A stretch of DNA of 64,000 bases from an uncultured Clostridia bacterium (lineage in GTDB: Bacteria > Bacillota > Clostridia > UMGS1883 > UMGS1540). Made by a program: the position numbers and the translations under genes. Location of the stretch: contig CALCLY010000025.1 in assembly GCA_937966555.1 (NCBI GenBank), positions 57,970-121,969 of the forward strand. Direction: 5' to 3'. The notes under the pieces are model-generated. The model did not search any database, had not been told where the DNA came from, and saw only the letters and a program-made list of their open reading frames with translations. Each line of letters starts with the position of its first letter. Positions within the stretch are counted from its first letter, which is position 1. Below, one piece after another: positions 5,201 through 31,567 of this stretch.

Positions 5201-5239
5201 ATATAATAAGTAATCGAAAATGACGAAGGAGGAGTAAAG

Positions 5240-6350: not shown

Positions 6351-6508
6351 CTTCTGCGGCATTTTCCGCGTTTTCTGAAGATGCTTGAAAACCGTTTGTG
6401 AATCTCGCAGCCGGTGTCAGCTGCTTTTTTTGCGGCTCTTTTAAGAGCAAGCATTTCAAGGTACGCTTCAACCTCGCAAAGATAATCGCTGTATCTGTTT
6501 TTTTTCAT
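6347..6508 (-). CDS. Possible small basic protein (53 aa, MKKNRYSDYLCEVEAYLEMLALKRAAKKAADTGCEIHKRFSSIFRKRGKCRRR)
   Basis: Not in the supplied ORF track because it is under 60 aa. The ATG is preceded by GGAGAG at a 6 nt spacing. It is convergent with ftsZ and ends in the shared terminator hairpin. Confidence 0.3.
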   Translation of the reverse strand: MKKNRYSDYLCEVEAYLEMLALKRAAKKAADTGCEIHKRFSSIFRKRGKCRRR

Positions 6509-6629
6509 ATTAATCTCTCCGATCAGTTATATTCTATGTGAAAATATCCCGATTGATGATAATATGCTTTTCTTGACTTTTTAAGCGTAATATGATAAAA
6601 TGACTTTAAAATAACAAAGGAGAACAGCC

Positions 6630-13733: not shown

Positions 13734-13740
13734 TAGCCTT

Positions 13741-14725: not shown

Positions 14726-14732
14726 TTTGCTT

Positions 14733-14775
14733 TAAAGCCGTTGGTTTGTTTTAAACAAACCAACGGCTTTTTTCA
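14733..14775. terminator. Strong hairpin terminator (AAAGCCGTTGGTTTGTTT-taa-AAACAAACCAACGGCTTT + TTTCAGG) between ytfJ and the convergent sigK gene
   Basis: 18 bp perfect inverted repeat. The U-tract is on the + strand, so it mainly serves ytfJ. Confidence 0.8.
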
Positions 14776-14806
14776 GGTTCCGGAGTTTTTTAACATCCCC
14801 TTTTTG

Positions 14807-16231: not shown

Positions 16232-16273
16232 GTAAAATACAATAAAAATTGATTGGGAGTTTTTATATTAACT

Positions 16274-17209
16274 ATGAATACCGATATGCTGAATTTAAAT
16301 GCAAAGGTATCGGAAAACGGCAAAAATATAAACATTCCGCTTTCCGAACTTCGAAAAGACATTCCGCATCTCACCGGAGGACAGATGAGAGAGCTGATGG
16401 GGTTTTTTAATAGAATGTTTGCCTTGGTCAGACTTGTAAAACCTTCAGTATGTGCGCAGTATTTATATGAAGATGGGACGCTGGAGAAAAAAGAACTTAA
16501 ATGCTACTGTAAATGGGGCAAAGACAGACGGTGCGAAAACTGCATTTCCGCTATTGCCGAGAGAAACGGTGCGTCCGAGACAAAAATAGAGTTTTTAAAC
16601 GACAGACTTTACAGTATTTCGGCGGCGCCCATGGTTGTGGACGGTGAGAATTTTGTACTGGAGCTTGCAACCTTTGTAGATTGCGGGGACGGTATTTCGG
16701 AAACCGAAAAAAATGAAATTTGGGGCGCCATAAAAAGACACGCCGGCAGACTGTATAGGGATCCTGTAACAGGTGTTTACAACAGACATTATTTTAATGA
16801 TAAGCTGAGCGGACTTAAAGGAAATTTTTCATTTGCCATGCTTGATATAGACAATTTTAAAAACATAAACGATATATACGGGCACATGGCAGGAGATGCG
16901 GCGCTTGTCGCGGCGGCACAGACGGTGAAAGAAATTATCGGAGAAAAAGGCGCGGTTATCCGTTACGGCGGAGATGAATTCTTTCTTTTGTTTAATAATG
17001 TCAAAAAAGATGAAACGGAAGAAATATTTTCGGAAATACTGAGAGCTGTAAGAAAAATCAAGCTTAAAAATTATCCCGAAATTAATTTGACCGTAAGCAT
17101 CGGCGGAGCAAGCGGACAAGGGAAAATGTCTCAGATTCTGCAAAATGCAGATTTGGCTTTATATGAAGCCAAAAATACAAAAGACACCTATAAAATATTT
17201 GCAGGATGA
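16274..17209 (+). CDS. Diguanylate cyclase (GGDEF domain) with a Cys-rich N-terminal sensory region (CYCKWGKDRRCENC)
   Basis: GGDEF domain with an intact active site (RYGGDEF), the YNRHYF motif before it and the DIDNFKNINDIYGH motif. No TM segments. Start taken at the ATG at 16274. Confidence 0.8.
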   Translation: MNTDMLNLNAKVSENGKNINIPLSELRKDIPHLTGGQMRELMGFFNRMFALVRLVKPSVCAQYLYEDGTLEKKELKCYCKWGKDRRCENCISAIAERNGASETKIEFLNDRLYSISAAPMVVDGENFVLELATFVDCGDGISETEKNEIWGAIKRHAGRLYRDPVTGVYNRHYFNDKLSGLKGNFSFAMLDIDNFKNINDIYGHMAGDAALVAAAQTVKEIIGEKGAVIRYGGDEFFLLFNNVKKDETEEIFSEILRAVRKIKLKNYPEINLTVSIGGASGQGKMSQILQNADLALYEAKNTKDTYKIFAG

Positions 17210-20200
17210 CAGGAAGATTTGTGTGATTGGGAACATTAAAAAGAAGAAAACTAAATATAATATTTTAAGAAATGCGGTTTTGCATTCTGTTATATTCACA
17301 CTTGTAATTTTGTGCGCTTTTCTTTTTCTCAATGCTAAACTCGGAAAAGCGGTGCAGACAAGGGCATACAGACTTCTTTCAGACGCTGCGCATGTGCAGA
17401 AAGCCGCTACGAACGAGCGTGTTGAGTCGTACTTCACTCGTCTTCAAATAATGGCTTCGAGCCTTAACTGGGACTGTGATATATATACAGATTCGGATCT
17501 TTTGGCGCATCTTAAGGAACTTGCGCGGGGCAGTCAGTTTGAAAATGTCGGGATTTCGGATACAAGCGGTAAGATACTTTACCAAGACGGCACAAAGAAG
17601 GACTGCGCGGACAGAGAATATATTAAAAACGCAATTGAAGGAAACCGGAGCACGCAGTTTTTAACGCACGGCCGCATGAGCGGAGACTCGATTTTGGTCT
17701 TTGCTTTGCCGGTATATTCATACGGCGTGGTGTCGGACGTGATTGTTGCAACAAAAAAAGTAAGCGATATAAGCCGCGAACTCGGCGGTATAGAATTAAA
17801 TGACGAGCAGCATTGTTTCCTTTGTTATGAAAGCGGCACAGTTGTTGCCGCACCGCAGGACAATTCCACGGGAATAGTACTCGGGAGCAGTATACAGGAT
17901 TTCTTTATAAATGACAGTGCACCCGAAGAAATACCGATAAACGAAGTGCGTGAATACACTTATAACGGGGAAAAATATTTTGGTGTATATACTGAGTCCG
18001 GGCTTGATGATGTATATATATTCAGCGTGGCAACGGTTTCATACGCTTCCAGCCTCGCGGGTCTTTATAACAGGCTCGCAACAATGATTATTGTTGCGGC
18101 ATTTATTGTATTCTTTATTGTTGCCGTCAACGTAATAATCAGAATGGCGCGTAAAATCAAAGAAGCGGAGAGGCAGGATCTGGAAAGACGCAAAAAGCTT
18201 TCCGAGTATCATGAATTTCAAAATAAGCGTTCTTCAAGCCGGGCAAATGTTTTGGCATCATATCATATTAATATTACCGAGAACAAGTCTATCGGTGGAA
18301 AAAGCGCAATAAATGCGGGTAAATTCGAAAATCTCAAGACGGTAGATGAGTTTTATGCCGCTGTGGCTGAAGACATACATCCGCTTGATAAAATAAGATT
18401 TGATGAAATTTTTTCTGTGGACGAACTCAAAAAAGTATTTGAAAACGGAGAATCTACCGTGCAGGGCGATTTTCTGTTTTATGAAAACGGAAAGCGCTAT
18501 ATTTGGCTGAGAATTGTTGCAGATCTTGTCCGTAATCCGCTTAACGACAGCTTGGAGACGATTATTTCGGCTATAGATATAAACCGCGGCAAACGTCTTG
18601 AGCAAATAGGCGATAAGCTCATAAAAGACGGATTTGACTCTATAGGGCTTATAGATGTTAAATCCGGCTGCGTTTATGGAACCAAAAAAATGGCAGCCTC
18701 AGAGCTGTTTGGCGGTTTTGTGGTAGACAAAGGCGTTTCGTATGACAGGGCAGCAAGAATTGTACTTAAAAGGGTGCTCGCAAAGCATGATTATGATTAC
18801 ATAATTGAAAGTTTTAAGCTTTCAAATGTAATTCATGAGCTTGAAAATAAACAGTTTTATTTTCTGACAACAAGATTTTATAATCGCAGTGCGAAAAAAG
18901 ATTTGCAGTACAGAATAAGTTTTTCGTATATTGATGAAAGAAAAGAGAGCATATTGGTCTCAAACGAAGATATTTCACATGTTTTGGCAAGTAAGACCGA
19001 TATTGAAACAGGGCTTTTGAATTCTACCGGATTTCATGAAAAGGTCGAAAAATGGCTTGAGGAGAATCCGAATAAAAAGTATAGAGTTTACAGGTACATT
19101 CTTGACGGCTTTAATGATATTAACGGCGTTTACGGCTTTGAAACAGGTAACAAGATTTTGCGCGATGTCGGCGTTTTCATGCGTATGCATAATGATGAGA
19201 ACAGCTTTTCGGCGCATCTTAATGCAAATCATTTTGTGCGTTTTTGTTCCGAAGATCATAACTCCGCCGAGACGGTGCTGAAAGAATTTAACGAATATTT
19301 CTCACATTACGATATTGACTATCCGCTTTCAATTCACATAGGCGTTTATGACCTTTGCGAAGAAAATTGTGATTCTCTTGCAATGGTGTATAAAGCATAT
19401 ATTGCTCTGCAGTCATTGGAAACAAGCGCTTCAAAGCGCATTGCATATTATGCTCCGGGGCTTTTAAGCAATGTGCAGAGCCGCAGGGAGCTTCTCGGCG
19501 AACTTAAAAGCGCAATTTCCGGCGGACAGTTTGAAATATGGTTCCAGCCGCAAATAGATTATAAAACAAAATCCATAGTCGGAGCAGAGGCACTGGTGCG
19601 CTGGAGACACCCCGAAAGAGGTTTTATACCGCCTTCGGAGTTTATTCCGCTGCTTGAGCGCAGCAGGCAGATAACGGTGCTTGACAGATACGTTTGGGAG
19701 CAGTGCTGCCGCTATGTACGGCATTTGATGGATATGGGAGTTACTTTGCCGGTATCCGTAAATGTTTCGCGCGTAGATATTGAGGATATAAAAGTTTGCG
19801 ATATTATTCTGGAATATGTAAAAAAATATAAAATATCTCCCGAGCTTATTAAGCTTGAAATTACAGAAAGCGCGTATATGAGCAGAAGAGATGAGCTGAA
19901 AAACGTTGTTACGCAGTTTAAAAAAGCAGGCTTTACGGTTGAAATGGACGATTTCGGAGAGGGCTATTCTTCACTTAATATTCTGAAAGACAGTGATGTT
20001 GACGTATTAAAACTCGATATGAATTTAACCGCCGGAATAGAAGACGCAAAGACGGTGGAAATTCTGAAAAGCGTTGTTAATATGGCGCATAATCTTAATG
20101 TTTTTGTTATTGCCGAGGGTGTGGAAAGCAAAGCGCAGGCAGATACTCTGGCAAGTCTGAAATGCCGATATATGCAGGGATACTTTTTCGGAAAGCCTAT

Positions 20201-20258
20201 GCCGGCTGCGGAATTTGAAAAGCTTTTAAAGGAAAGGGATATAAAGTCGATTCAATAA
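17145..20258 (+). CDS. Membrane-anchored c-di-GMP phosphodiesterase: periplasmic Cache-like sensor, TM, degenerate GGDEF domain, C-terminal EAL domain
   Basis: EAL motifs: QPQID...GAEALVRW, ELIKLEITESAY, the DDFGEGYSSL loop and EGVE. The middle GGDEF-like region lacks GG(D/E)EF. Two TM helices flank a ~250 aa extracytoplasmic domain. The start (17145, 17163 or 17223) is ambiguous and overlaps the upstream gene. Confidence 0.8.
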   Translation: MQIWLYMKPKIQKTPIKYLQDDRKICVIGNIKKKKTKYNILRNAVLHSVIFTLVILCAFLFLNAKLGKAVQTRAYRLLSDAAHVQKAATNERVESYFTRLQIMASSLNWDCDIYTDSDLLAHLKELARGSQFENVGISDTSGKILYQDGTKKDCADREYIKNAIEGNRSTQFLTHGRMSGDSILVFALPVYSYGVVSDVIVATKKVSDISRELGGIELNDEQHCFLCYESGTVVAAPQDNSTGIVLGSSIQDFFINDSAPEEIPINEVREYTYNGEKYFGVYTESGLDDVYIFSVATVSYASSLAGLYNRLATMIIVAAFIVFFIVAVNVIIRMARKIKEAERQDLERRKKLSEYHEFQNKRSSSRANVLASYHINITENKSIGGKSAINAGKFENLKTVDEFYAAVAEDIHPLDKIRFDEIFSVDELKKVFENGESTVQGDFLFYENGKRYIWLRIVADLVRNPLNDSLETIISAIDINRGKRLEQIGDKLIKDGFDSIGLIDVKSGCVYGTKKMAASELFGGFVVDKGVSYDRAARIVLKRVLAKHDYDYIIESFKLSNVIHELENKQFYFLTTRFYNRSAKKDLQYRISFSYIDERKESILVSNEDISHVLASKTDIETGLLNSTGFHEKVEKWLEENPNKKYRVYRYILDGFNDINGVYGFETGNKILRDVGVFMRMHNDENSFSAHLNANHFVRFCSEDHNSAETVLKEFNEYFSHYDIDYPLSIHIGVYDLCEENCDSLAMVYKAYIALQSLETSASKRIAYYAPGLLSNVQSRRELLGELKSAISGGQFEIWFQPQIDYKTKSIVGAEALVRWRHPERGFIPPSEFIPLLERSRQITVLDRYVWEQCCRYVRHLMDMGVTLPVSVNVSRVDIEDIKVCDIILEYVKKYKISPELIKLEITESAYMSRRDELKNVVTQFKKAGFTVEMDDFGEGYSSLNILKDSDVDVLKLDMNLTAGIEDAKTVEILKSVVNMAHNLNVFVIAEGVESKAQADTLASLKCRYMQGYFFGKPMPAAEFEKLLKERDIKSIQ

Positions 20259-20558: not shown

Positions 20559-21395
20559 TTAATATTTCTTTGTTTTTAAAGCATTTTCAACGTTATTTAT
20601 TGCGCGCGCCGCATCTTCGCCCATGTGATTTACAATGTAGGCATAAATTGAATCTATTATAGCAAGCGCCGCAATACGTGAGTTAAGCCCCAAAATTGAA
20701 TACTGTGTTTCTTTTGAAGACGTATAAAGCGAAATATCCGAAGCTTTAACAATTGGAGATTTGCCGTGATTGGTTATCGAAATTGTGAAAGCTTCGTTTT
20801 TTTTGGCAATTTGCAGAGCTTCAACAATATCGCGCGAAGAACCCGAGTGGGATATTCCCAAAGCCACATCGCCTTTTTTCATGTGAGACGCGGCAATTGC
20901 CTGCATGTGGTTGTCGCAGTATGCAAACGCGCTGCACCCCGCGCGCATGAATTTGTGCGCGGCATCAAGCGCCACGGCGGAGGAATTACCGAGCCCGAAT
21001 ATGTAGACGGCTCCGGCTGTGAGTATTTTTTGCGCCGCAAGCTCAAGTGTTTTGGAATTTAAGCTGCTTTTGGTCATTTCGAGGGAGCGGTATATATCAT
21101 CGGAAAGCTTTTCAAATATTTCAAAACAGCTGTCTGTCGGCAATATATCGGGGTTTGTAAGATTTTGACCGCTTTCCTGTGCAACCGAGATTTTGAGTGC
21201 CTGGTATCCCGAAAAGCCGAGGCGGCGTGCAAAACGGACTATTGTGGCTTCGGAGCTTTCCGCTGCATCGGCAAGCTCGGTTATGGACAGGGGAATAATT
21301 GCCTGTGGGTTGGCGAGAATAAAATCCGCTATTTTTTTTTCCGATTTCCCCATTTTTTCATATTTTATTTGTATGTTTAATATTGTTTTGTTCAT
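20559..21395 (-). CDS. RpiR/MurR family transcriptional regulator (HTH + SIS domain)
   Basis: N-terminal HTH_6 (ITELADAAESSEATIVRFARRLGFSGYQAL) and a C-terminal SIS phosphosugar-binding domain. 278 aa. Divergent from the sugar catabolic operon. Confidence 0.8.
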   Translation of the reverse strand: MNKTILNIQIKYEKMGKSEKKIADFILANPQAIIPLSITELADAAESSEATIVRFARRLGFSGYQALKISVAQESGQNLTNPDILPTDSCFEIFEKLSDDIYRSLEMTKSSLNSKTLELAAQKILTAGAVYIFGLGNSSAVALDAAHKFMRAGCSAFAYCDNHMQAIAASHMKKGDVALGISHSGSSRDIVEALQIAKKNEAFTISITNHGKSPIVKASDISLYTSSKETQYSILGLNSRIAALAIIDSIYAYIVNHMGEDAARAINNVENALKTKKY

Positions 21396-21591
21396 ATAAT
21401 TTCTTCACTTTCGGTTATTGATTTAAGAGCGTTTTAAATGTTTTTTTCACTATATATATTTTATATCAAAAAAAATATCCTGTCAATGAAAAAATTTTTT
21501 AAAAACACTTGAAATTTCTTTTTATTTGTGCTATAATTTTTTTGAAAAAAGAGCTTAAAAACGAAAAATATTTTCAGAATGGAGAGGTTTT

Positions 21592-23013
21592 ATGAACGAT
21601 TTACTGTTTACTCTGATATTAACAGAGCTTGAAGATGCAGTCGGAAAAGAAAATTGTTCGACAAAAGAGATTGATAAAATAACTCACAGTGTCGACTATT
21701 TCTGGCTTTCGAGAATGTGGGCCGACAGGGGGCTCAGAATGCCCGAAGCGGCGGCTGTTGTTTCGCCGAAAAATGCCAAAGAGGTAAGCGCGGTACTTAA
21801 AATTGCAAATTATTACAAGATCCCCGTGACGACATGGGGCGGCGGCGGCGGCACCCAGGGAGGGGCGCTTCCCGTGGCAGGCGGCATTGTTCTCGATACG
21901 AAGAGAATGAATGAGATTTATGACATAAATGAAAAATCAATGTACATAGAGTGCGGAACCGGCGCTATATATAAGCACCTCGAATGGGCGGCAAACGAGA
22001 GGGGATATGCCACAATGCATTACCCGAGTTCTTTGACATGCTCCACCGTCGGCGGATTTTTGGCACACCGCGGCATAGGCGTTGTTTCCACAAAATACGG
22101 AAAAATTGACGATATGGTGCTCGGCATGGAGGTTGTTTTGCCAAACGGCGATATTATTGAAACGTCTCCGGCGCCGAAACATGCGGCAGGTCCCGATTTA
22201 AATCAGATTTTTATAGGCTCTGAGGGAACTCTGGGCATTATGACAAAGGCACAGATGCGTATTTACGATATGCCCGAGGAGAGACGCTTCCGCGGTTTCC
22301 TGTTCCAGAATATGGACGACGCTTTTTGCGGCGCACGTGAGCTTTTGCAGAAATTCAAACCGTCCGTTATGAGGCTTTACGATGAAGCGGAAACGGCAAC
22401 GCTTATCAAAAAAATAGTCGGGGTAGAGAAAAAGGGCGCGTTTATGAACGTTGCGATAGAAGGTGTTTCAGAGCTTGTTGAAGTTGAAGAAAAGATTCTT
22501 CTCGATACGTTTGTAAATAAATATCATGCGGAGGATTTGGGCTCCGAGTACGGTGAAAAATGGTGGAAGGAGAAAATAACGTTCTTCTATCCGGGGCACA
22601 TGATGGATGTTCCGCAGATGTTCGGAACAATGGATACCATAGCTCCGTATGACAAAATCGAAAAAATATACTGGGAGATGAAAAAAGCAATAGAAACAAA
22701 TTTCCCCATGGCAAGGTTTATTGCGCATTTTTCGCACTGGTACGAATGGGGCTGCATGATTTACGACAGATTTATCGTAGACGATGTTCCGAAAGATCCG
22801 CATGACGCACTCCGTCTTCACCAGGAAATATGGACGTGCGGCGTAAGAACGGCACTCCAAAACGGCGGTGTTGTAAACGATCATCACGGAGTCGGCATTA
22901 AGCTCGGCAGACTTATGAAAGAACAGTACGGCCCTGCAATGCAGGTGTTTGAAGGACTTAAAAAACAGCTTGATCCTAACGGAATTATGAATCCGTACAA
23001 GCTGGGATTATAA
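21592..23013 (+). CDS. FAD-linked oxidase (PCMH-type FAD binding, GlcD / D-lactate dehydrogenase-like)
   Basis: 473 aa with an FAD-binding region (PVTTWGGGGGTQGGALPVAGGIVLDTKRMNEI) and a C-terminal oxidase domain. Confidence 0.7.
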   Translation: MNDLLFTLILTELEDAVGKENCSTKEIDKITHSVDYFWLSRMWADRGLRMPEAAAVVSPKNAKEVSAVLKIANYYKIPVTTWGGGGGTQGGALPVAGGIVLDTKRMNEIYDINEKSMYIECGTGAIYKHLEWAANERGYATMHYPSSLTCSTVGGFLAHRGIGVVSTKYGKIDDMVLGMEVVLPNGDIIETSPAPKHAAGPDLNQIFIGSEGTLGIMTKAQMRIYDMPEERRFRGFLFQNMDDAFCGARELLQKFKPSVMRLYDEAETATLIKKIVGVEKKGAFMNVAIEGVSELVEVEEKILLDTFVNKYHAEDLGSEYGEKWWKEKITFFYPGHMMDVPQMFGTMDTIAPYDKIEKIYWEMKKAIETNFPMARFIAHFSHWYEWGCMIYDRFIVDDVPKDPHDALRLHQEIWTCGVRTALQNGGVVNDHHGVGIKLGRLMKEQYGPAMQVFEGLKKQLDPNGIMNPYKLGL

Positions 23014-23023
23014 GGAGGGTATT

Positions 23024-24109
23024 ATGCATTTTTCGGAATCAGCTAAAAAGAATATAGACTCATGCCGTTTCTGCTGGATGTGCAGACATATTTGCCCCAT
23101 CGGAAACGTAACGGGACAGGAGAGAAATACGGCAAGAGCAAGAGCGCTGTCGCTTTCCATGGTGGCGCGCGGCTCGGCAGATTTTTCGGAGGATATTATA
23201 GATAACGTTTATCAGTGCGCATTGTGCAGAGCCTGCACAAATGACTGCGCAACAGGCTACGACCCGGTTGTATACACAAAAGAAGCAAGACTCATGGCGG
23301 CTTTGGAGGGTAAAATGCCCGAGTATGCCGAGAGACTTCTTTTAAATATTGAAAAAACGGGCAATGTGTACGGCGAAAAGAAAATTGACGAAGAGCTTAT
23401 GGCGGAAATCAGCCCGGGAGGAGAAAAGAGCGATACGCTTTTCTATCTGGGTACGGATGCAATTTACAAAACGCCAAAAAACGCAATTGCCGCAATACGC
23501 GTTTTGAGAAAAGCAGGAATTAAATTTGAGCTTCTTAAAGATGAACCCGAAAGCGGTTATGCCGAAGATTTTCTTTTCGGTGCGGCGGACGAAACGAAGA
23601 AAGCGATGAAAAAATGCGCAAAGGCTTTAAACGAATATAAAACCGTAATCGTTTATAACCCCGACGATGCAAAAGAATTTTTAAGAGAATATAAGGAATG
23701 GGGAACAGACCTTTCCGCAAATATCAGAACTTTTGTTTCCGTATTGGCGGAAAGCGTTAAAAACGGCAGCCTTAAAGCGGAAAAAGGCGAAAAGACGTTT
23801 ACGCCTCAGGACACGCCGTCGCTTTCGAGAGAGCTTGAGGATTCGGAAAGTCTGAGAGACGTGCTTTCTGCATTCGGAGAAATAAAAGAAATGCTTCTTA
23901 TAAAGAAAGACACCGTGCTTTGCGCAAATCTTATTATGAACGAATATATGCCGGGCGTTATGAAAGCCGTTGCGGAAAAAAGATGGGCGGACGCGCTGCA
24001 TGTGGGCGCAAAAACGGTTGTGACTTCGTCACCTGCCGAATATTTCATGCTCCAAAGCACAAAGCCCGAGGGAATAGAGCTCCTGAGCATAGAGGAGGTA
24101 GTTTTGTAA
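23024..24109 (+). CDS. Fe-S oxidoreductase with 4Fe-4S motifs and CCG-like domain (GlcF/LutA-like partner of the FAD oxidase)
   Basis: Two Cys clusters (CRFCWMCRHICP; CALCRACTNDC) followed by a Cys-poor C-terminal domain. Directly downstream of the oxidase. Confidence 0.6.
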   Translation: MHFSESAKKNIDSCRFCWMCRHICPIGNVTGQERNTARARALSLSMVARGSADFSEDIIDNVYQCALCRACTNDCATGYDPVVYTKEARLMAALEGKMPEYAERLLLNIEKTGNVYGEKKIDEELMAEISPGGEKSDTLFYLGTDAIYKTPKNAIAAIRVLRKAGIKFELLKDEPESGYAEDFLFGAADETKKAMKKCAKALNEYKTVIVYNPDDAKEFLREYKEWGTDLSANIRTFVSVLAESVKNGSLKAEKGEKTFTPQDTPSLSRELEDSESLRDVLSAFGEIKEMLLIKKDTVLCANLIMNEYMPGVMKAVAEKRWADALHVGAKTVVTSSPAEYFMLQSTKPEGIELLSIEEVVL

Positions 24110-24936
24110 TGCTTTTAAATTTAAAACAATTACTTGATTATACAAACGGGAAGGAATTTGCCGTTCCCGCGTTTAATGTATATAATATGGAAACGGTTAT
24201 GGGTATAATGGCTGCGGCGGAAGAAACAAACGCGCCCGTTATAATCCAGTGTTACTCGCGTCTTTTCACAAACGGCGAGGGAGCATATGTTGCACCTTTG
24301 GCGGTTGCGGCGGCTGAAATGGCACACACACCCGTTTGTTTCCATCTGGACCACGGCGCGGGCGAAGCGGAAGTTATGAAAGCTTTGCGCGGCGGAGCAA
24401 CGGGAATTATGATAGACGGTTCCGCATACAGCTTTGAGGAAAATGTGGCGCTTACAAAGCGCGTAAGAAAACTCTGCGATGCACTCGGCGTGCCGGTTGA
24501 GGCGGAACTCGGACATGTGGGGACGGTAAATGATGAGCATATGGCAGATTTTACTGAAGTTTCCGACGCTGTAAAGTTCGTTCAGGAAACGGGCGTGGCA
24601 TCTCTTGCCGTTATGGTCGGTACGGCTCACGGCAGATACAAAAAAGCGCCGCGGCTTGACATGCAGCGCATTCGCGACATAAGCCGCGAGACAGGTATTC
24701 CGATAGTGCTGCACGGTGGAAGCGGCGTGCCGGACGATCAGATAAAAGAGGCAATAAAGTGCGGCATAAGAAAAGTAAATTTTGGAACGGACGTATGCTA
24801 TTCGTTCCTTGACAAGGTTTTTGAAACATCGCGCGACAAAGTGGCGATAGATATGTTTATGAAAGACGCGGTTCAAAACGTAAAGAATTTTGCCGTAAAC
24901 AAAATAAAGCTTTTGGGAGCTGACAATAAAGCATGA
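24109..24936 (+). CDS. Class II ketose-bisphosphate aldolase (FBA_II family; tagatose-/fructose-1,6-bisphosphate aldolase-like). Start at the TAATG overlap at 24109, not the track start at 23920
   Basis: Motifs PVIIQ, HLDHGAG, the GGATGIMIDGS region and the HGGSG loop of class II aldolases. RBS AGGAGG at 24092-24097. Confidence 0.75.
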   Translation: MLLNLKQLLDYTNGKEFAVPAFNVYNMETVMGIMAAAEETNAPVIIQCYSRLFTNGEGAYVAPLAVAAAEMAHTPVCFHLDHGAGEAEVMKALRGGATGIMIDGSAYSFEENVALTKRVRKLCDALGVPVEAELGHVGTVNDEHMADFTEVSDAVKFVQETGVASLAVMVGTAHGRYKKAPRLDMQRIRDISRETGIPIVLHGGSGVPDDQIKEAIKCGIRKVNFGTDVCYSFLDKVFETSRDKVAIDMFMKDAVQNVKNFAVNKIKLLGADNKA

Positions 24937-25865
24937 TAAAAATAGTGGGAATAGGTGCAAATGTACATGATACTTTAATATCCGTGCCGCATTTCCCGAA
25001 AGAGGACACAAAATCAAAGTGCACTTTTGTAACGGAAAGTGGCGGAGGGCCCTGTGCAACGGGTCTTGTTGCGGCATCAAAACTCGGCGCGGAGTGTGCG
25101 TATATAGGCGCGCTGGCAGATGATGCCGGCGGAAAGTTTCTGCTTTCCGATATGATAAAATTCGGAGTTTCGGCAGAATACACGGTTTTGCAAAAAAACG
25201 CTTCGTCCTTTGCCTCATATATTCTTTTAAACACCGGGAACGCGACAAGAACATGCGTTTTTAACAAAGATAATCTGCCGATTTTTGAAATTGACGAAAA
25301 TGCAAAAAAAGCCATTGAGGCGGCAGAGGTTCTGATGGTGGACGGAAATGAGCTTGAAAACGCCGTAAAAGGCGCAAAAATTGCGCGCGGTGCCAAAACG
25401 AAAGTGCTTTATGACGCGGGCGGAATTTATGAAGACGTTGAAAAGCTTTTGAGACTTACCGACATACTTATTCCGTCCGAAGAATTTTCACTGGAATTTA
25501 CGGGAAAGAAAACTGCCGAAGATGCGGCACATGCGCTTTTTGAGATGTTCTCGTCCGAGGTTGTTGTAATAACGCAGGGCAAAGAAGGCGGAATAATTCT
25601 GCAAAACGGTGAAATACGGCGCTATCCATCATTTAAAGTAAATGCCGTGGATTCAAACGGCGCCGGAGACGTATTTCACGGTGCATTTGCATACGGTGTA
25701 ACAAAAGGCTTTTCATATTATGACTGCTGCGTTTTTGCAAGTGCGGTTTCGGCGCTTAAGTGCACTGCAGTAGGTGCGCGCGCGGCGGTTCCCTCATATA
25801 ACGATACAATTAACTTTTTAAAGGAGTGCGGACATGATGAATTTAAAGAAAACATGGAACGGTAA
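24933..25865 (+). CDS. PfkB-family carbohydrate kinase (ribokinase fold; KdgK/tagatose-6-P kinase-like)
   Basis: C-terminal NGAGDVFHGAF motif of PfkB kinases. 310 aa. ATGA overlap with the aldolase. Confidence 0.75.
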   Translation: MIKIVGIGANVHDTLISVPHFPKEDTKSKCTFVTESGGGPCATGLVAASKLGAECAYIGALADDAGGKFLLSDMIKFGVSAEYTVLQKNASSFASYILLNTGNATRTCVFNKDNLPIFEIDENAKKAIEAAEVLMVDGNELENAVKGAKIARGAKTKVLYDAGGIYEDVEKLLRLTDILIPSEEFSLEFTGKKTAEDAAHALFEMFSSEVVVITQGKEGGIILQNGEIRRYPSFKVNAVDSNGAGDVFHGAFAYGVTKGFSYYDCCVFASAVSALKCTAVGARAAVPSYNDTINFLKECGHDEFKENMER

Positions 25866-26625
25866 GTATGGAAAAAGCGAAATTATAACGCGGAAAAACA
25901 GTACGATGGAGCGCGTTGAAATCAATGCCCTAAAGCTTCACGACGGCGAAACAAAAAAATACAGCGAGTGCGGCAAGGAGTACGGCATAACGATTTTGGG
26001 CGGAAAATGCTCCGTTGAGGGAGACGGATTTTCGTTTGAAAAAATCGGAAAGAGAAAAAACGTGTTTGACGGCACGGCAACCTGCGTATATATTCCGCGC
26101 AACAAGGAGTTTACAATAAAGGGCGAAGGAGAAGTTTCGATGATTGTGGCAAAATGCCCGTCGGAAAAAGACTGTGCTCCGCGCCTTATAAGCCCGGATG
26201 ACATTATAGTAAAATCTTTGGGCAAGCCCGGCTGGCAGCGTGACGCGCACTTTGTTCTCGATGAAAGATGCGATGCGGATATGATTTACATAGGAGAGGC
26301 ATATGTTGAAGGCGGTCAGTGGTCGAGCTTTCCTCCTCATAAGCATGACGATGACAACATGCCCACCGAGGCAGACACGGAAGAGGTTTATTACTATGAA
26401 TTCGATAAGCCGGAGGGTTTTGGTATTCAAATGATCTATTCAAAAGAGGGCGATGTTGACGAGACGATAAAGGTTAAAACAGGTGATTTTGCGGAAATTC
26501 ACAGAGGATATCATCCGCTTGCAACGGCGCCCGGATACAAGTGCTACTATTACTGGGTTATGGCAGGGAAAAACAGAGGATTTTTCATGACAACTGACGA
26601 AGAGCATGCATGGCTCAATAAATAA
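25834..26625 (+). CDS. KduI/IolB-family sugar isomerase (cupin; 5-dehydro-4-deoxyglucuronate / 5-deoxyglucuronate isomerase-like)
   Basis: ~263 aa with a beta-rich sequence and a PPHKHDDD metal-binding-like motif. The family assignment is from memory of KduI/IolB and is uncertain. Confidence 0.45.
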   Translation: MMNLKKTWNGKYGKSEIITRKNSTMERVEINALKLHDGETKKYSECGKEYGITILGGKCSVEGDGFSFEKIGKRKNVFDGTATCVYIPRNKEFTIKGEGEVSMIVAKCPSEKDCAPRLISPDDIIVKSLGKPGWQRDAHFVLDERCDADMIYIGEAYVEGGQWSSFPPHKHDDDNMPTEADTEEVYYYEFDKPEGFGIQMIYSKEGDVDETIKVKTGDFAEIHRGYHPLATAPGYKCYYYWVMAGKNRGFFMTTDEEHAWLNK

Positions 26626-26642
26626 ATTATCGGAGAGCAGCT

Positions 26643-28112
26643 ATGAAATATGTACTCGGAATAGACTTTGGCGGAGGTTCTTCAAAAGCTTTGCTGCTTT
26701 CGGAATCGGGGGAAATTGCAGCCGAAGCGTCGGTTGAATATCCGACGTATTTCCCCGAAAACGGATTTTGCGAGCAAAGACCCGCCGACTGGTATGATGC
26801 GGCATGTGAAAACATACGTATTCTGCTTGAAAAAAGCGGGGTTTCAAGCTCAGATATAAAGGCGATGGCGCTTGACGCCGCAACGCACACGGCGGTGCTG
26901 TGCGACGAAAATTTCAATGTTCTGCGCGATTCGGTTTACTGGACAGACACAAGAAGCTTTGCCGAATGTAAATTTCTTCGCGAAAAATACGGTGATCTTA
27001 TTTTGCGGCAATGTTATCACAGCCCGGACACAATCTGGACTTTGCCGCAGCTTTTGTGGATTAAAAACCATGAGCCGCAGCTTTTCTCAAAGGTTCGGAA
27101 AATTATGTTTGCAAAAGACTATGTGCGCCACATGCTGACGGGTGATTTTGTGACAGACAATGTGGAAGCCGAGGGAAGCATGCTTTTTGATTTTGAAACG
27201 CAGAGCTGGTCACATGAACTTTGCTGCATTTTGGGCATTTCGCCGTCATTTCTGCCGAAGATTGTAAAGCCTTATGATATGGCAGGAAGGATAACAAAAC
27301 AAGCCGCGCTCAGCACGGGACTGTGCGAAGGTATGCCCGTTTTATGCGGAACCACGGATACTCTTATGGAGGTGTTTGCCGCAGGCGGCACAAAAAAAGG
27401 AGCAATGACCGTAAAGCTTGCTACGGCAGGCAGAATCTGCGTTATAACGGATGCACCTCTTAAGGGACGCGACTTTGTAAATTACAGCCATTTTAAGGAT
27501 GGACTGTGGTATCCCGGGACGGCTACAAAATCGTGCGCGGCGTCGCTTCGGTGGTACCGCGATACGTTCGGGGGCAAATATGATGAAATGGATAATGAGG
27601 CGGAAAGAATTCCGGCAGGTGCGGAAGGACTTTTGTTCCATCCGTATTTAAACGGCGAACTTACCCCATATGCCGACCCGGAACTTTGCGCAAGCTTTGT
27701 GGGAATACGTGCCGGGCATACAAAAGCACATTTTACAAGAGCTCTTTTAGAGGGCGTGGCTTTTTCGCTTTTGGAATGCAAAAATGCGCTTGACAAAAAG
27801 ATGACAGACCATGACAGTGCAGCTGCGGCAATAGGCGGAGGAGCAAAAAGTCCTCTTTGGCGGCAGATTGTTTCGGATGTGCTTAACATAAAACTTGCAG
27901 TTAAAAACTGCAGTGACTCATCTTTGGGAAGCGCAATGCTTGCAGGTGTGTATGCAGGATTTTTCGATTCGTACGAAAGCGCGCTGCAAAAATGCACACA
28001 CACGGTTTCCGAAACCGTGCCATCAAAGGCAAGACACGAAAAATATATGAAAGTTTTCGGGCGCTACAAGGCAGTGCATGACGCTTTGGCGCCGATATAT
28101 AAAATGAAATGA
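26643..28112 (+). CDS. FGGY-family sugar kinase (xylulokinase/glycerol kinase fold)
   Basis: N-terminal LGIDFGGGSSKALL motif, a second actin-fold domain with a GGGAKS-like loop. 489 aa. Confidence 0.8.
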   Translation: MKYVLGIDFGGGSSKALLLSESGEIAAEASVEYPTYFPENGFCEQRPADWYDAACENIRILLEKSGVSSSDIKAMALDAATHTAVLCDENFNVLRDSVYWTDTRSFAECKFLREKYGDLILRQCYHSPDTIWTLPQLLWIKNHEPQLFSKVRKIMFAKDYVRHMLTGDFVTDNVEAEGSMLFDFETQSWSHELCCILGISPSFLPKIVKPYDMAGRITKQAALSTGLCEGMPVLCGTTDTLMEVFAAGGTKKGAMTVKLATAGRICVITDAPLKGRDFVNYSHFKDGLWYPGTATKSCAASLRWYRDTFGGKYDEMDNEAERIPAGAEGLLFHPYLNGELTPYADPELCASFVGIRAGHTKAHFTRALLEGVAFSLLECKNALDKKMTDHDSAAAAIGGGAKSPLWRQIVSDVLNIKLAVKNCSDSSLGSAMLAGVYAGFFDSYESALQKCTHTVSETVPSKARHEKYMKVFGRYKAVHDALAPIYKMK

Positions 28113-29461
28113 AGATATTGGTTTGCGTTAAAATCATAAAGGGCGATGTAAATCCGTTTGACGAGTGTGCGCTTGAGGCGGCGCTGAGGCTTTCGGACGA
28201 TGTTACGGTGCTTTCTATGGGACCGGTTTCGTGCCGTGAGCCGCTTCAAAAACTGACGCGCCTCGGGGCGCGGTGTATACTGCTTTCGGACAGCGATTTT
28301 GCCGGTTCCGACACGCTTGCAACATCGTATATTTTGTCCGAAGCGGCAAAAAAAGCAGGGTTTGACCTGATAATCTGCGGCAGACAGAGCATAGACGGCG
28401 ACACAGGGCAAGTTGGCGCGATGATGTCACATATGCTGGATATAAGGCTTTATCCGTTTGTAACAAAGCTTGAGGGACTTAGGGCTCATATGCGGAGCGG
28501 CAAAACGGAGGATATAAAGCTGCCTGCGCTTATTACGGTTGAGAGGATAAATACTCTGCGCTTTCCGTCTATACGCTCACGTGCCGGCGAGGTCACGGTG
28601 TGGGACAATTCCGTTCTTGGTGCCGACAGAGAGCGGTGCGGCATTTCGGGTTCGCCGACAAGGGTTATAAAAAGCTTTGAAAACGAAAGCGGAAAAAGAC
28701 ACTGCCGTTTTATAAAGCTTTCGGAGCTCGATGAGATAATTAAAAACTACAGAAGAAAACCGCGCGCCGTGCGTGAAAGCCATGGCAAGCTTAAAAAGGT
28801 ATGGTGTGTGGGAGAAGAGGCGGCGGCTGAAGCCTTGTGCATTTCTGACGATATTAAGGTGTTGGAAGAAAACAATCCGCTTTTGATTGCAAAGTATGCA
28901 AAAGAAGAAAAGCCGAACGCAATTTTGTGGAAAGCGGATTTGGAGGGCAGAACTGCCGCTCCGATTTGCGCGGCGGAGCTTTCGGCAGGTCTTTGCGCAG
29001 ACTGCACGGAACTTGAAACTGACGGCGAAACTCTTTTTATGTACCGACCGGCGGGAAGCGGCAAAATATATGCGAAGATAAAATGTATTACGGCTCCGTG
29101 TTTAGCCACTGTGAGAACTGCCGCGCTCGGCGGAAGAATAACGGTTTCGGCAGGGAAGGGCGCAAAGGATGCGCTTGAAGCTGTGCACACTTTTGCAAAA
29201 AAATACGGAGCGGATTTCGGAGCTTCGCGTGCCGCGGTTGACATGGGACTTGCGCCGTACGAAGCGCAGATAGGACTTACGGGAAAAAGTATATCGAGCG
29301 ATATATATATAGCAGTCGGGATTTCCGGTGCGGTGCAGCATATGTGCGCCGCCGAAGGGTGCGGACTTATAATAGCCGTAAATTCCGATAAAAATGCGGA
29401 CATATTCGACTATGCCGATATGGGAATAGTATGTGACGCCGACAGGCTGGGAGATATATGA
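28109..29461 (+). CDS. Single-chain electron transfer flavoprotein: EtfB-like N-terminal domain fused to an EtfA-like C-terminal FAD domain
   Basis: N-terminus MKILVCVKIIKGDVNPFDECALEAALRL is the EtfB signature. The C-terminus carries EtfA motifs (LCADCTELE, RPAGSGKIYAKIKC, IAVGISGAVQHMCAAEGCGLIIAVNSD). It is 450 aa, where separate subunits would total ~580. Confidence 0.65.
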   Translation: MKILVCVKIIKGDVNPFDECALEAALRLSDDVTVLSMGPVSCREPLQKLTRLGARCILLSDSDFAGSDTLATSYILSEAAKKAGFDLIICGRQSIDGDTGQVGAMMSHMLDIRLYPFVTKLEGLRAHMRSGKTEDIKLPALITVERINTLRFPSIRSRAGEVTVWDNSVLGADRERCGISGSPTRVIKSFENESGKRHCRFIKLSELDEIIKNYRRKPRAVRESHGKLKKVWCVGEEAAAEALCISDDIKVLEENNPLLIAKYAKEEKPNAILWKADLEGRTAAPICAAELSAGLCADCTELETDGETLFMYRPAGSGKIYAKIKCITAPCLATVRTAALGGRITVSAGKGAKDALEAVHTFAKKYGADFGASRAAVDMGLAPYEAQIGLTGKSISSDIYIAVGISGAVQHMCAAEGCGLIIAVNSDKNADIFDYADMGIVCDADRLGDI

Positions 29462-30639
29462 TTATTAAAAACGGAAAAGTTGTAACAAAAGAAAAAATAC
29501 TTTCCGGATTCGATATAAAATGCGAAAACGGAAAAATTACGGAAATTGCGGAGAATCTGCCGCCCTGCGATGATACTCTATTTGCCGACGGTATGTTTGT
29601 GCTGCCGGGTCTTGTGGATATTCATACTCACGGCGGATACGGCGCGGATTTTATGGATGCCACAAAAGAGGCTTTTGACACGGCGCTTTCGTTTCATATG
29701 CAAAACGGCACGACTTCCGTGCTCGCATCAAGCGTAACGGCGCCCGTTGAAAGCATAGAAAAAATGCTTTGCGCAACGCGCGGATATATGAAGAAGAGCG
29801 GCGGTGTGTGCCGCGTTTTGGGTGCGCACATAGAAGGTCCGTTCATTTCTTATAAAAACAAGGGTGCGCAAAAAGCGGAATATTTAAAAATACCGTCCAA
29901 AGACGGATATTCGTTTATTCTGAACAATGCGGATATTATAAAAAATGTCACCTTGGCAACAGAGCTTGACGGGGCGGTGCAAATGACAAAAAAGCTGACT
30001 TCTCTGGGAATAACCGTTTCGTGCGGACATGATGACGGCAATCTTTTAACTCTTTTGCCGTGTATTGATGCCGGAATGACAAACTGTACGCACTGGAGCT
30101 GCGCGATGAGCTCCGCGGCGGTGCGTGACGGAGTGAGAAATGTAGGTCTTACGGAGCTTGCACTTATAGATGAAAGACTCACGCTGGAACTTTTGGCAGA
30201 CAATCATCATCTGCCGCCCGAGATGGTAAAGCTTGCATATAAGTGCCGCGGAGCGGACAAATTGTGCATAGTTTCCGACTGTCTCCGTGCCGGCGGCATG
30301 CCGCGTGACGGCAGAGTGTATTCTCTCGGAGCCGGAGCGGAGGGAGAAACCTCTCGGTTTATTGTATCGGACGGTGTGGCGCGCCTTACGGACGGAACAA
30401 GATTTGCCGGAAGTATTCAGCCTCTCGGGCAAATGATACGCAATCTTGTTTTTGACTGTAATATACCGCTTGTTGACGCCGTTAAAGCCGCGTCGGCAAA
30501 CCCGGCGAAAATTATAGGCGAAGACGGGTTTGTTGGTTCAATAGAAAAGGGCAAGGCGGCGGACTTTTATATTTGCGACGCGGCTCTCAATCCCAAAATG
30601 ACGATAGTAAATCAGATAATAAAAAATAAATTAATGTAA
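29458..30639 (+). CDS. NagA-family amidohydrolase (N-acetylglucosamine/galactosamine-6-phosphate deacetylase-like)
   Basis: Motifs LPGLVDIHTHGGYGADFMD and HIEGPFIS, and ~390 aa length. Confidence 0.75.
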   Translation: MIIKNGKVVTKEKILSGFDIKCENGKITEIAENLPPCDDTLFADGMFVLPGLVDIHTHGGYGADFMDATKEAFDTALSFHMQNGTTSVLASSVTAPVESIEKMLCATRGYMKKSGGVCRVLGAHIEGPFISYKNKGAQKAEYLKIPSKDGYSFILNNADIIKNVTLATELDGAVQMTKKLTSLGITVSCGHDDGNLLTLLPCIDAGMTNCTHWSCAMSSAAVRDGVRNVGLTELALIDERLTLELLADNHHLPPEMVKLAYKCRGADKLCIVSDCLRAGGMPRDGRVYSLGAGAEGETSRFIVSDGVARLTDGTRFAGSIQPLGQMIRNLVFDCNIPLVDAVKAASANPAKIIGEDGFVGSIEKGKAADFYICDAALNPKMTIVNQIIKNKLM

Positions 30640-30661
30640 AACAAGGAAAGGAAGACCTAAT

Positions 30662-31483
30662 GTGAAAGAAACATATTATTGCAGCCCCGAAGAATTTGCA
30701 AAAAACAGCAAGATTCCGCTGCGCGTTATGAAGACGGAAGAATCCATGTACGAAGAAATCGGCAGACTCATGGCAGATACGATAAAAAATAACGGAGATG
30801 ACAAAACGGTTATAATTTGCCCCGTGGGGCCAATTGCACAGTACACTCACTTTGCAGATATAGTAAACCGCGAAAAAATTAGCCTTAAAAACTGCTGGTT
30901 TATCAATATGGATGAGTATCTGACAGATGACGATAAAACAATAGCTTACAACAATCCTCTAAGCTTTCATGCCACCATGGACAGAATGCTTTATTCAAAG
31001 ATTGACCCCGAGCTTTTGATGCCCGAAAGCCAAAGGCTTTTTCCGATTCCGGGAAAAGAAAAGGAAACAGATGAGCTTTTTGAAAAGCTCGGCAAGGTTG
31101 ATATCTGTCTTACGGGCGTCGGCATAAACGGACATATTGCATTTAATGAGCCGGCAGAGCCGGGAGACGATATAACCGATGCGGAATACATGGAGCTCGG
31201 AACGCGCTGCATGGATATTTCACGCGAAACGATAGTAAATAACGGCGCTCACAAAATCCGCGGCGCTTTGGATATATTTCCGAAAAGATGCATAACCCTG
31301 GGCGTAAAGCAGCTTATGAAAGCAAAGGTTTTGAAGGTTTATCTCTACTGCGACTGGCAGTGGGGAATTGCGAGGAAAATAGCTCTTGAGCCTGCGTCGC
31401 GCTTTATGCCGGCTTCATTTTTGCAGCTTCATGATAATGCGGAGATGGTAATAACGGAGGATTTGTATAATTTTATGCTGTAA
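30662..31483 (+). CDS. Glucosamine-6-phosphate deaminase/isomerase family protein (NagB/AgaI-like), GTG start
   Basis: NagB-family motifs (VICPVGPIAQYTHF; NCWFINMDEYL; DICLTGVGINGHIAFNEP). 273 aa. Confidence 0.7.
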   Translation: MKETYYCSPEEFAKNSKIPLRVMKTEESMYEEIGRLMADTIKNNGDDKTVIICPVGPIAQYTHFADIVNREKISLKNCWFINMDEYLTDDDKTIAYNNPLSFHATMDRMLYSKIDPELLMPESQRLFPIPGKEKETDELFEKLGKVDICLTGVGINGHIAFNEPAEPGDDITDAEYMELGTRCMDISRETIVNNGAHKIRGALDIFPKRCITLGVKQLMKAKVLKVYLYCDWQWGIARKIALEPASRFMPASFLQLHDNAEMVITEDLYNFML

Positions 31484-31517
31484 GATGCTTGTATCGGGCA
31501 TATTATCGGTAAACAAA

Positions 31518-31567
31518 AGCAAGGTGCTGCAAAACGGTTTCGTTTTGCAGCACCTTGCTTTAAAAAA
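31518..31567. terminator. Bidirectional terminator between the nagB-like gene and the convergent AraC gene (AAGCAAGGTGCTGCAAAAC-ggtttc-GTTTTGCAGCACCTTGCTT, flanked by A/T runs)
   Basis: 19 bp perfect inverted repeat, with TAAAAAA downstream and AAACAAAA upstream. Confidence 0.85.

Follow-up and report, generated by a model that had tools for sequence, protein, structure and literature searches.

The operon and its signals

We analysed a window of 64,000 nucleotides from an uncultured Clostridia bacterium of the human gut (lineage UMGS1883; UMGS1540; contig CALCLY010000025.1 of assembly GCA_937966555.1, positions 57,970 to 121,969), in which a sugar-breakdown gene cluster lies at 21592-31483. 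An original prediction, made from the sequence alone, had placed nine open reading frames (ORFs) and a divergent regulator here. All nine ORFs were found on the + strand, and their gene families were upheld by Pfam and NCBIfam profile searches, on which all family calls in this study are based; NCBIfam scores are given against the curated cut-offs.

The first gene (21592-23013) encodes a FAD enzyme of the VAO/GlcD superfamily (Pfam FAD_binding_4 and FAD-oxidase_C) that appears similar to alkyl-dihydroxyacetone-phosphate synthase (AGPS). It is followed by the gene of a 2x[4Fe-4S] partner protein (23024-24109; Pfam Fer4_8, with weak NCBIfam matches to GlpC, TfrB, GlcF and LdhH), a class II, metal-dependent aldolase of the FBA/TBA family predicted to release dihydroxyacetone phosphate (DHAP) (24109-24936; PF01116, 1e-85), a PfkB-family ketose kinase (24933-25865; PF00294, 1.4e-40) and an IolB-type aldose-ketose isomerase of the cupin fold (25834-26625; PF04962, 2e-75; TIGR04378). 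Next come a xylulokinase-like FGGY kinase (26643-28112; FGGY_N and FGGY_C; XylB TIGR01312) and a single-chain electron-transferring flavoprotein (ETF) of 450 aa, in which a truncated EtfB-like N-terminal part is joined to an EtfA FAD domain (28109-29461; PF01012 in two stretches and PF00766). Two accessory genes end the series, one for a NagA-type N-acetylhexosamine-6-phosphate deacetylase (29458-30639; TIGR00221 above its cut-off) and one for a divergent NagB/AgaI-like isomerase-deaminase (30662-31483; NCBIfam nagB 3.9e-25, below its cut-off).

The regulator gene (20559-21395, - strand) has the domain pair of the RpiR/MurR family, Pfam HTH_6 (3.7e-25) and SIS (2e-19). In the spacer, a consensus scan located a divergent promoter-like region (21458-21537). 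As sequence matches, both of its sites agree with the consensus at 11 of 12 positions: TTGAAA-17-TATAAT with a TG at 21509-21537 on the + strand, and TTGACA-17-TAAAAT at 21486-21458 on the - strand, on the RpiR side. The sole inverted repeat in this spacer is AT-rich with a 76% match, and no operator was assigned. A bidirectional intrinsic-terminator-like hairpin with a 20-bp stem (31517-31560) closes both the operon and a convergent AraC gene. Within the operon, the aldolase gene starts at ATG 24109, not at the listed TTG 23920, and overlaps the stop of the Fe-S gene (TAATG, 24106-24111). ATGA overlaps join aldolase and PfkB (24933), FGGY kinase and ETF (28109), and ETF and NagA (29458), so that all four couplings of the original prediction are real in the sequence; the PfkB and IolB genes overlap by 32 nt. 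With these couplings, the promoter-like sites and the hairpin, the idea of one RpiR-paired catabolic operon held up, and 21592-31483 is best read as a single nine-gene sugar-breakdown operon with its own promoter-like site, terminator-like hairpin and divergent RpiR/SIS regulator.

A conserved cassette and its enzymes

Sibling loci, numbered here with the letter L, were collected from metagenome-assembled genomes (MAGs) named Candidatus Fimenecus, Ructibacterium, Oscillospiraceae and 'Clostridia bacterium'. Fourteen carry a complete cassette and several others a partial one; counts out of 15 refer to the window and these 14. In every complete sibling the order is flavoenzyme, Fe-S protein, aldolase, PfkB kinase, IolB, variable genes, FGGY kinase and ETF. 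The seven-gene core is a cassette of fixed order, and it is widespread among uncultured Clostridia of the gut. The divergent RpiR gene is usually present wherever the upstream DNA is covered: it recurs, 54-86% identical, in L004, L005, L006, L012 and L090, and it is also found in L171 and L174.

The NagA and NagB enzymes of the original prediction are present in the operon, but they are not part of the core, since NagA and the NagB-like gene are restricted to 5 of the 15 complete loci (the window, L005, L089, L173 and L174). NagA scores 237.7 against a cut-off of 225.65 on TIGR00221, and its L089 homologue 255. The NagB-like protein stays below TIGR00502 (88.6 against 236.9) and has no Pfam Glucosamine_iso (PF01182) match, even at E<1. 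L173 and L174 each hold two NagB-like paralogues inside the cassette, 40-46% identical to the window protein. This NagB/AgaI-like family, of about 265-283 aa and without a Pfam match (6500-7351 and 12538-13332 in L173; 5618-6466 and 9194-9997 in L174), could comprise deaminases, isomerases or lactonases. The other siblings carry different variable genes: a FucI-like isomerase of 466-487 aa (11 loci), DUF4867 (7), an aldose 1-epimerase/mutarotase (3-4), a cupin like phosphomannose isomerase (PMI; 3) and a protein like N-acylglucosamine 2-epimerase (AGE; 2). NagA with the NagB-like protein is one of several interchangeable entry sets. No transporter gene was found inside the operon of the window or of any sibling locus examined. 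A transporter of the SSF family beside the L174 cassette was considered and set aside, as it is PutP and unrelated. Separately, a 685-aa ORF follows the cassette in two unrelated loci, L006 (11523-13580, Metallophos/5'-nucleotidase type) and L011 (12630-14687).

The flavoenzyme has a mean pairwise identity of 88% (81-98%) over the 15 loci, against averages of 53-65% for the other six core proteins, and it is under far stronger constraint than its operon partners. Its best solved relatives are the alkyl-DHAP synthases 2uuu and 4bby, ahead of D-lactate dehydrogenase (D-LDH). Pairwise alignment revealed that AGPS residues Arg419, Tyr578 and His616/His617 are kept in the motifs MRLYD, CMIYDRF and DHHGVG, which align with IRLMD, ACIYFYF and HHHGVG of 4bby and 2uuu. 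The EHG motif is absent, the D-LDH sequences GEHGIG and GHVGDGN being aligned with DHHGVG and AHFSHWY; we take EHG and GDGN to be metal-site motifs of D-LDH. GlcD of TIGR00387 is the top NCBIfam match, at a score of 195.9 against 567.9. No GlcE is encoded in the operon, and the Fe-S protein has no CC pairs of the kind found in CCG-type GlcF. For the 'oxidase' of the original prediction, a lactate/glycolate type is not supported, since its active site is AGPS-like.

The relationship to AGPS is a distant one in terms of identity, and the full-length AGPS architecture was not found: the flavoenzyme has 473 aa against 584-658 aa, the alignment begins at window residue 55-58 against AGPS residue 140 or 211, and the N-terminal domain, with some 85-150 extra residues in AGPS, is missing. 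AGPS is reportedly redox-neutral, whereas the ETF and Fe-S partners encoded with the flavoenzyme in this sugar operon imply a net redox reaction. Judged by its active-site residues the flavoenzyme appears AGPS-like.

The Fe-S partner has two CxxCxxCxxxC motifs for 4Fe-4S clusters (Cys 14/17/20/24 and 65/68/71/75) and a C-terminal domain like that of GlpC/GlcF, in which the CCG cysteines are lost; its best NCBIfam match is GlpC. The ETF combines EtfB-type and EtfA FAD domains in one 450-aa chain, and more than 100 near-full-length fused homologues with 54-59% identity were found in gut metagenomes. Cys177/199/296/299 (GLCADC motif) are invariant, as is the motif IDGDTGQVG, which may mark a bifurcating ETF; the four cysteines could bind a metal or a cluster. 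Scanning genome contigs with the ETF alignment gave nine true fused homologues, the rest being ordinary EtfAB pairs. In metagenome contigs, the matches listed were almost all unfused EtfBA pairs, with L091 as the sole true homologue among them. A 47%-identical ETF occurs by itself, with no cassette around it, in a MAG of the Thermoguttaceae (Planctomycetota; L013). The FGGY kinase scores 374.5 against 380.25 on the XylB model TIGR01312 (368 in L006), and its best PDB match is the xylulokinase 5vm1.

For the isomerase, TIGR04378 (IolB) is the sole NCBIfam match, at 236.9 against a cut-off of 205. The sibling variants score 213-249, all above 205, including those just 35-48% identical to the window protein, and the Salmonella IolB-like structure 2qjv matches the isomerase at 2.4e-42. 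No KduI model was matched by the window isomerase or any variant tested, so the original assignment as KduI-like gives way to IolB. The PfkB kinase lies below every NCBIfam cut-off (ribokinase 132.7/299.65, IolC N-domain 89.6/300). Its closest solved relative is the sulfofructose kinase YihV (143.6 bits, against 99 for ribokinase), and a KdgK-like identity, as once suggested, is not supported. Sulfonate recognition in YihV depends on the triad K27-N109-R138 (PMC8006165), of which pairwise alignment to 7ag6 shows Lys27 kept, position 109 changed to Val and Arg138 changed to Asn.

The aldolase scores 244 against 215.6 on the subfamily model TIGR00167, and it is below the cut-offs of the FBA, GatY and KbaY equivalog models. 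Among solved structures YdjI is its best relative (6ofu, 5.1e-52), followed by the sulfofructose-phosphate aldolases 8q57/8q58 (SqiA) and AgaY. The sulfonate pocket of such aldolases consists mostly of backbone and hence is not diagnostic (PMC10665668). The ydj cluster of E. coli likewise pairs a PfkB-family kinase (YdjH) with a class II aldolase (YdjI), but it has dehydrogenases instead of the IolB, FGGY and ETF genes. YdjI is said to be an aldolase for carboxylate-tailed ketose 1-phosphates. By analogy, isomerase, PfkB kinase and aldolase would follow the isomerase/1-kinase/DHAP-aldolase logic of IolB-IolC-IolJ, YdjH-YdjI and sulfo-EMP, the sulfo-Embden-Meyerhof-Parnas route. All systems with this logic known to us work on sugars that bear an anionic tail.

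A tblastn search of plasmids returned a 42%-identical flavoenzyme in Mesorhizobium sp. B2-1-8 that shares the AGPS-type motifs. It lies directly downstream of a xylB FGGY kinase, 40% identical to the window kinase and scoring 392 on TIGR01312, and directly upstream of a hypothetical protein similar to the C-terminal domain of the Fe-S partner (hhalign probability 88.6%, E 2.7e-6). On this plasmid (NZ_CP083953, L175, 10489-14570), the xylB-like kinase, the AGPS-like flavoenzyme and the cysteine-poor partner homologue form a three-gene unit adjoining a LacI regulator, an unclassified ABC importer, two aminotransferases and D-amino-acid-dehydrogenase-like genes; these neighbours hint at an amino-alcohol or serine-derived substrate in Mesorhizobium.

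A further relative is YgcU of E. coli K-12, 31.7% identical to the flavoenzyme, with ARLYD, HHHGIG and an aligned Tyr (NMYFVY). Its cluster, ygcNOP-ygcQRSUW-yqcE-ygcE, also encodes the FGGY kinase YgcE, the EtfAB proteins YgcQR, the FixCX-like YgcNO, the annotated anti-terminator regulator YgcP, two transporters of the major facilitator superfamily (MFS) and the KduD-like short-chain dehydrogenase/reductase (SDR) YgcW (347.5 against 369). Thus it shares with the cassette an AGPS-like FAD enzyme, an FGGY kinase and an ETF with a ferredoxin-like partner. It differs in its unfused ETF, in YgcN, the SDR, the MFS transporters and YgcP, and in having no aldolase, PfkB kinase or IolB; YgcE is merely 23% identical to the window kinase. 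A literature search found no functional study of the ygc cluster. FGGY kinase and AGPS-like flavoenzyme, with or without ETF and Fe-S proteins, form a conserved and uncharacterised cross-phylum unit, and the clostridial cassette couples this unit to that of IolB, PfkB kinase and aldolase. The original prediction had noted neither that FGGY kinase, flavoenzyme and ETF belong to a conserved set nor how common the seven-gene cassette is among gut Clostridia. The protein families themselves are ordinary. The cassette, the AGPS-like flavoenzyme with a single-chain ETF, and the link to ygc are not described in the literature searched, in which we found no account of AGPS-like enzymes in sugar operons or of sulfatase-free catabolism of 6-sulfated sugars.

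Possible routes through the cassette

We propose, with a confidence somewhat short of even, that the AGPS-like flavoenzyme, its Fe-S partner and the single-chain ETF form a new enzyme system acting on a phosphorylated hydroxymethyl-ketone that the FGGY kinase supplies, and that the cassette is an undescribed, widespread route of human-gut Clostridia by which an acidic sugar (uronate-, sulfo- or similarly substituted) is converted wholly into glycolytic C3 phosphates. Candidate reactions of the flavoenzyme are the reduction of 3-phosphohydroxypyruvate and the cleavage or reduction of a 1-substituted DHAP. A more committed version, in which hexuronate, 2 ATP and 2[H] would yield DHAP and 3-phosphoglycerate, is offered tentatively, as a possible but rather doubtful account.

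In this hexuronate route, a free acidic aldose, released together with N-acetylglucosamine (GlcNAc) or other companion sugars, would be converted to a keto-uronate by IolB. PfkB would phosphorylate the keto-uronate at position 1, the hydroxymethyl group beside the keto group, and the aldolase would split the 1-phosphate into DHAP and tartronate semialdehyde. From hydroxypyruvate, the tautomer of tartronate semialdehyde, the FGGY kinase would make 3-phosphohydroxypyruvate, which resembles DHAP and would fit a pocket like that of AGPS. The flavoenzyme would then reduce it to 3-phosphoglycerate, with electrons from NADH, possibly ferredoxin-coupled, arriving through the ETF and the Fe-S partner. 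In the lineage of the window, NagA and the NagB-like protein would turn the companion GlcNAc 6-phosphate into fructose 6-phosphate.

The variable genes encode mutarotases and aldose-ketose isomerases or deaminases, and the substrate would therefore come in as a reducing sugar in its free form. Besides two kinases and a single DHAP aldolase, the cassette has exactly one device that handles two electrons, and the conversion of hexuronate to DHAP and 3-phosphoglycerate would take exactly one two-electron reduction, matching this inventory. Neutral hexoses, sulfoquinovose and sugar sulfates would reach triose phosphates without net redox, and 6-deoxy sugars would require a thermodynamically inaccessible hydroxylation. 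The Fe-hydrogenase of the host and the Rnf complex that adjoins the cassette in L174 fit ferredoxin/NADH-linked ETF chemistry.

Several points weigh against the hexuronate route. We infer its substrate, and all carriers of the cassette are uncultured. Across the loci examined, there is no consistent linkage to a uronate transporter or to a glycosidase that releases uronates. We know of no precedent for a hydroxypyruvate kinase or for a flavin/ETF-dependent phosphohydroxypyruvate reductase, and NADH-dependent enzymes of the SerA type would easily carry out this reduction. With IolB spent on the hexuronate, tartronate semialdehyde would have to become hydroxypyruvate spontaneously or through IolB promiscuity. 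No ETF gene adjoins the unit in Mesorhizobium, and for an aerobe the oxidative direction would be more natural; the direction of electron flow is our proposal. FucI-like protein, DUF4867 and FGGY kinase recur together as a xylose-type triad in other clostridia (PMC6158908, PMC11968277), so that a ketose, not a C3 acid, may be the substrate of the FGGY kinase. Other starting compounds were tried on paper and rejected, namely 4-deoxy-L-threo-5-hexosulose uronate (DHU) or 3-deoxy-D-glycero-2,5-hexodiulosonate (DKII), sialic acid or ketodeoxynonulosonate (Kdn), ketodeoxyoctulosonate (Kdo), hexitols, 6-deoxyhexoses and 4-O-methyl-glucuronate; each left an invariant enzyme without a possible substrate or gave an impossible electron balance.

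The reading of the original prediction, refined to two interleaved pathways for glycosaminoglycan-type disaccharides, is unlikely in our view. In its uronate arm, DHU would be isomerised to DKII by the KduI/IolB-like protein, phosphorylated by the FGGY kinase to DKII-6-phosphate and reduced by the flavoenzyme and ETF to 2-keto-3-deoxy-6-phosphogluconate, FGGY kinase and flavoenzyme replacing KdgK and KduD and Eda being encoded elsewhere. In its amino-sugar arm, GlcNAc or N-acetylgalactosamine 6-phosphate would pass through NagA and the NagB-like protein to a ketose 6-phosphate, and through PfkB and the class II aldolase to triose phosphates, following Aga/Nag logic. The DKII-6-phosphate step would take exactly one two-electron reduction, NagA is above its cut-off, and heparinase II/III-like genes lie downstream in the window; moreover, YgcW stands in the ygc cluster where the clostridia have a KduI/IolB-family protein, which points to a common hydroxymethyl-keto acid intermediate. 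The adjacency to lyase genes, however, is specific to this lineage, because no sibling locus examined has heparinase-like neighbours, and the functional tie to the lyase locus that had been suggested could not be maintained. The Nag/Aga routes share NagA, a NagB/AgaI-like protein, PfkB and a class II aldolase with the operon, but here PfkB and aldolase are invariant, whereas the accessory NagA and NagB are missing from most cassettes and the NagB-like protein is far below its cut-off. The KduI-KduD-KdgK-KdgA route has the Pfam family of the isomerase in common with the cassette, yet this isomerase scores as IolB; no Eda, KduD, GH88 or GH105 was recognised among the window ORFs scanned, and no KduD, SDR or Eda/KdgA in the operon or the sibling cassettes. 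The genes of both supposed pathways are also interleaved in a fixed order. Oxidation of a polyol phosphate or reduced sugar, as by GlpK/GlpABC or EryA/EryB, strikes us as decidedly unlikely. The FGGY kinase would phosphorylate a terminal -CHOH-CH2OH group, the flavoenzyme, its GlpC-like partner and an ETF confurcating to NAD+ would oxidise the adjacent carbinol to a 2-keto-1-phosphate head, the aldolase would free DHAP, and IolB and PfkB would convert the leftover aldehyde. This agrees with the adjacency of kinase, flavoenzyme and GlpC-like partner in Mesorhizobium, with GlpC as the best NCBIfam match of the Fe-S protein, with YgcP, presumably of the GlpP family, and with the ETF-QO-like YgcN, which suits an oxidative dehydrogenase; a 2-keto-1-phosphate product would also suit an AGPS-like pocket. 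Against it, entry is by mutarotases and aldose-ketose isomerases that handle sugars at the oxidation level of hexoses, no polyol-making reductase is present, the electron balance of the oxidative step is unexplained, and polyol oxidation is normally NAD-linked.

The kinship of the PfkB kinase with YihV and of the aldolase with SqiA brings to mind a hexose with an anionic C6 substituent, degraded by a hybrid sulfo-EMP pathway for sulfoquinovose or by a route for 6-O-sulfated GlcNAc or glucose; we regard either as improbable. An isomerase (FucI-like, or NagA with the NagB-like protein), a YihV-like PfkB and a SqiA-like aldolase would give DHAP and X-CH2-CHOH-CHO, IolB and the FGGY kinase would make a 1-X-DHAP, and the AGPS-like enzyme would remove sulfite or sulfate to leave a second DHAP, just as a leaving group departs from C1 of a DHAP derivative in the AGPS reaction. 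Homologues of PMI, NagA and NagB usually have 6-phosphates as substrates, and a sulfonate or sulfate is a mimic of these. The isomerase/1-kinase/aldolase logic of YihS/YihV/YihT and SqvB/SqvD/SqiK/SqiA is shared, and the accessory families PF02952, PF16161, PF01263 and PF07221 are those listed for sulfoquinovose isomerases and 'mutarotases' in sulfo-EMP1/2 (PMC10665668). We downgraded this explanation because the YihV triad is incomplete (Arg138 and Asn109 are not kept), sulfoquinovose-specific genes are absent, xylose operons share the accessory set of DUF4867, FucI-like protein and FGGY kinase (PMC6158908, PMC11968277), and the redox unit would have nothing to do: removal of the sulfonate or sulfate to give DHAP is redox-neutral and leaves the invariant ETF and Fe-S genes unexplained. 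The sibling loci examined contain no GH31 sulfoquinovosidase, sulfolactaldehyde reductase or dehydrogenase, sulfonate exporter or sulfite reductase, and in the window too no GH31, sulfolactaldehyde-processing enzyme or exporter was found. The FucI-like proteins score about 100 against 700 on the SftI model, and by score the L089 AGE protein is an N-acylglucosamine 2-epimerase, not YihS. IolB, FGGY and flavoenzyme/ETF genes occur in no described sulfoglycolysis and are unmentioned in a 2026 review (PMC12890257). Finally, a chance fusion of the lower myo-inositol branch (IolB-IolC-IolJ on 5-deoxyglucuronate) with an LctBCD-like D-lactate/glycolate dehydrogenase-ETF and a xylulokinase deserves very little credence. 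The isomerase does pass the IolB equivalog model, the top NCBIfam match of the flavoenzyme is GlcD, and LctD of Acetobacterium woodii (7qh2) is among its PDB matches at 2.9e-28, from an anaerobic Firmicute in which a GlcD-superfamily flavoenzyme likewise works with an ETF. Like the cassette, the inositol pathway of Bacillus subtilis and Salmonella has a cupin isomerase, a PfkB kinase and a class II FBA-family aldolase that releases DHAP from an acid-tailed sugar. It has neither the FGGY kinase nor the flavoenzyme/ETF unit, however; no IolD- or IolE-type ORF was seen among those scanned in the window and the sibling loci, and the PfkB and GlcD scores (89.6 against 300, and 195.9 against 567.9) are far too low. 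LctBCD has residues of the 2-hydroxyacid-dehydrogenase type, whereas in the cassette AGPS-type residues stand in place of the EHG and GDGN motifs, the ETF is one chain of 450 aa and there is an extra 2x[4Fe-4S] partner. Seven translationally coupled genes in a fixed order across 15 loci, and a flavoenzyme conserved at 88%, argue for one pathway. As had been predicted, the gene set makes up no complete known pathway.

Genomic neighbourhood and biological meaning

The lyase-like genes (DUF4962/DSE-like_N with Hepar_II_III_C) lie downstream of the operon, from 32667 on, past the terminator and the convergent AraC gene; upstream of the RpiR gene are GGDEF/EAL signalling genes, not lyases. Behind the AraC regulator, a large surface-protein locus extends over 32667-55395. 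It includes three proteins with DSE-like_N (DUF4962) and Hepar_II_III_C domains, two of which add copper-amine-oxidase N-terminal and F5/8 type C domains. SLH proteins, a GH43 protein with CBM6 and a GFO_IDH_MocA oxidoreductase (45299-46354), which we take to be a member of the superfamily of IolG, are also encoded here. Two big proteins are nearly devoid of Pfam matches, one of 636 aa with a Big_5 domain alone and one of 816 aa with no match. No ABC transporter, sulfatase or GH88/GH105 enzyme was recognised at 32667-55395. Directly upstream of the RpiR gene, 16253-20258 holds the genes of a GGDEF protein and of a 1037-aa dCache-GGDEF-EAL protein, the latter also found in L001 from the same organism.

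Further downstream (56086-59732), a NuoF-like flavoprotein gene (Complex1_51K, 2Fe-2S, 4Fe-4S) is followed by that of an [FeFe]-hydrogenase large subunit. This pair looks like an NADH/ferredoxin-coupled hydrogenase of the HydABC type and would be a plausible partner for ETF-linked redox chemistry. At 78-6301 and 13690-15499 lie a division/cell-wall (dcw) cluster (MraY-like, FtsW/SpoVE, MurG, MurA-like, FtsQ and FtsZ), a DUF2953 gene and the gene of a sigma-70-family factor; together they show that the host is a Firmicute, probably a spore-forming one.

The cassette has a substantial chance of hiding new enzyme chemistry, and its substrate is one that we infer. If it is a distinct pathway, it would be how many uncultured Clostridia of the human and animal gut (Fimenecus, Ructibacterium and Oscillospiraceae MAGs) harvest a class of sugars, and its ETF-coupled step may conserve energy. 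The exchangeable entry genes (NagA/NagB-like, FucI-like, DUF4867, PMI-like and AGE) would amount to a natural experiment on which dietary or host glycans feed the route. If our proposal is true, it would provide the first physiological role for bacterial AGPS-like flavoenzymes, whose sole characterised relatives make ether lipids in eukaryotes, and a function for the orphan ygcE/ygcU/ygcQR cluster of E. coli that would be directly testable in a tractable organism.

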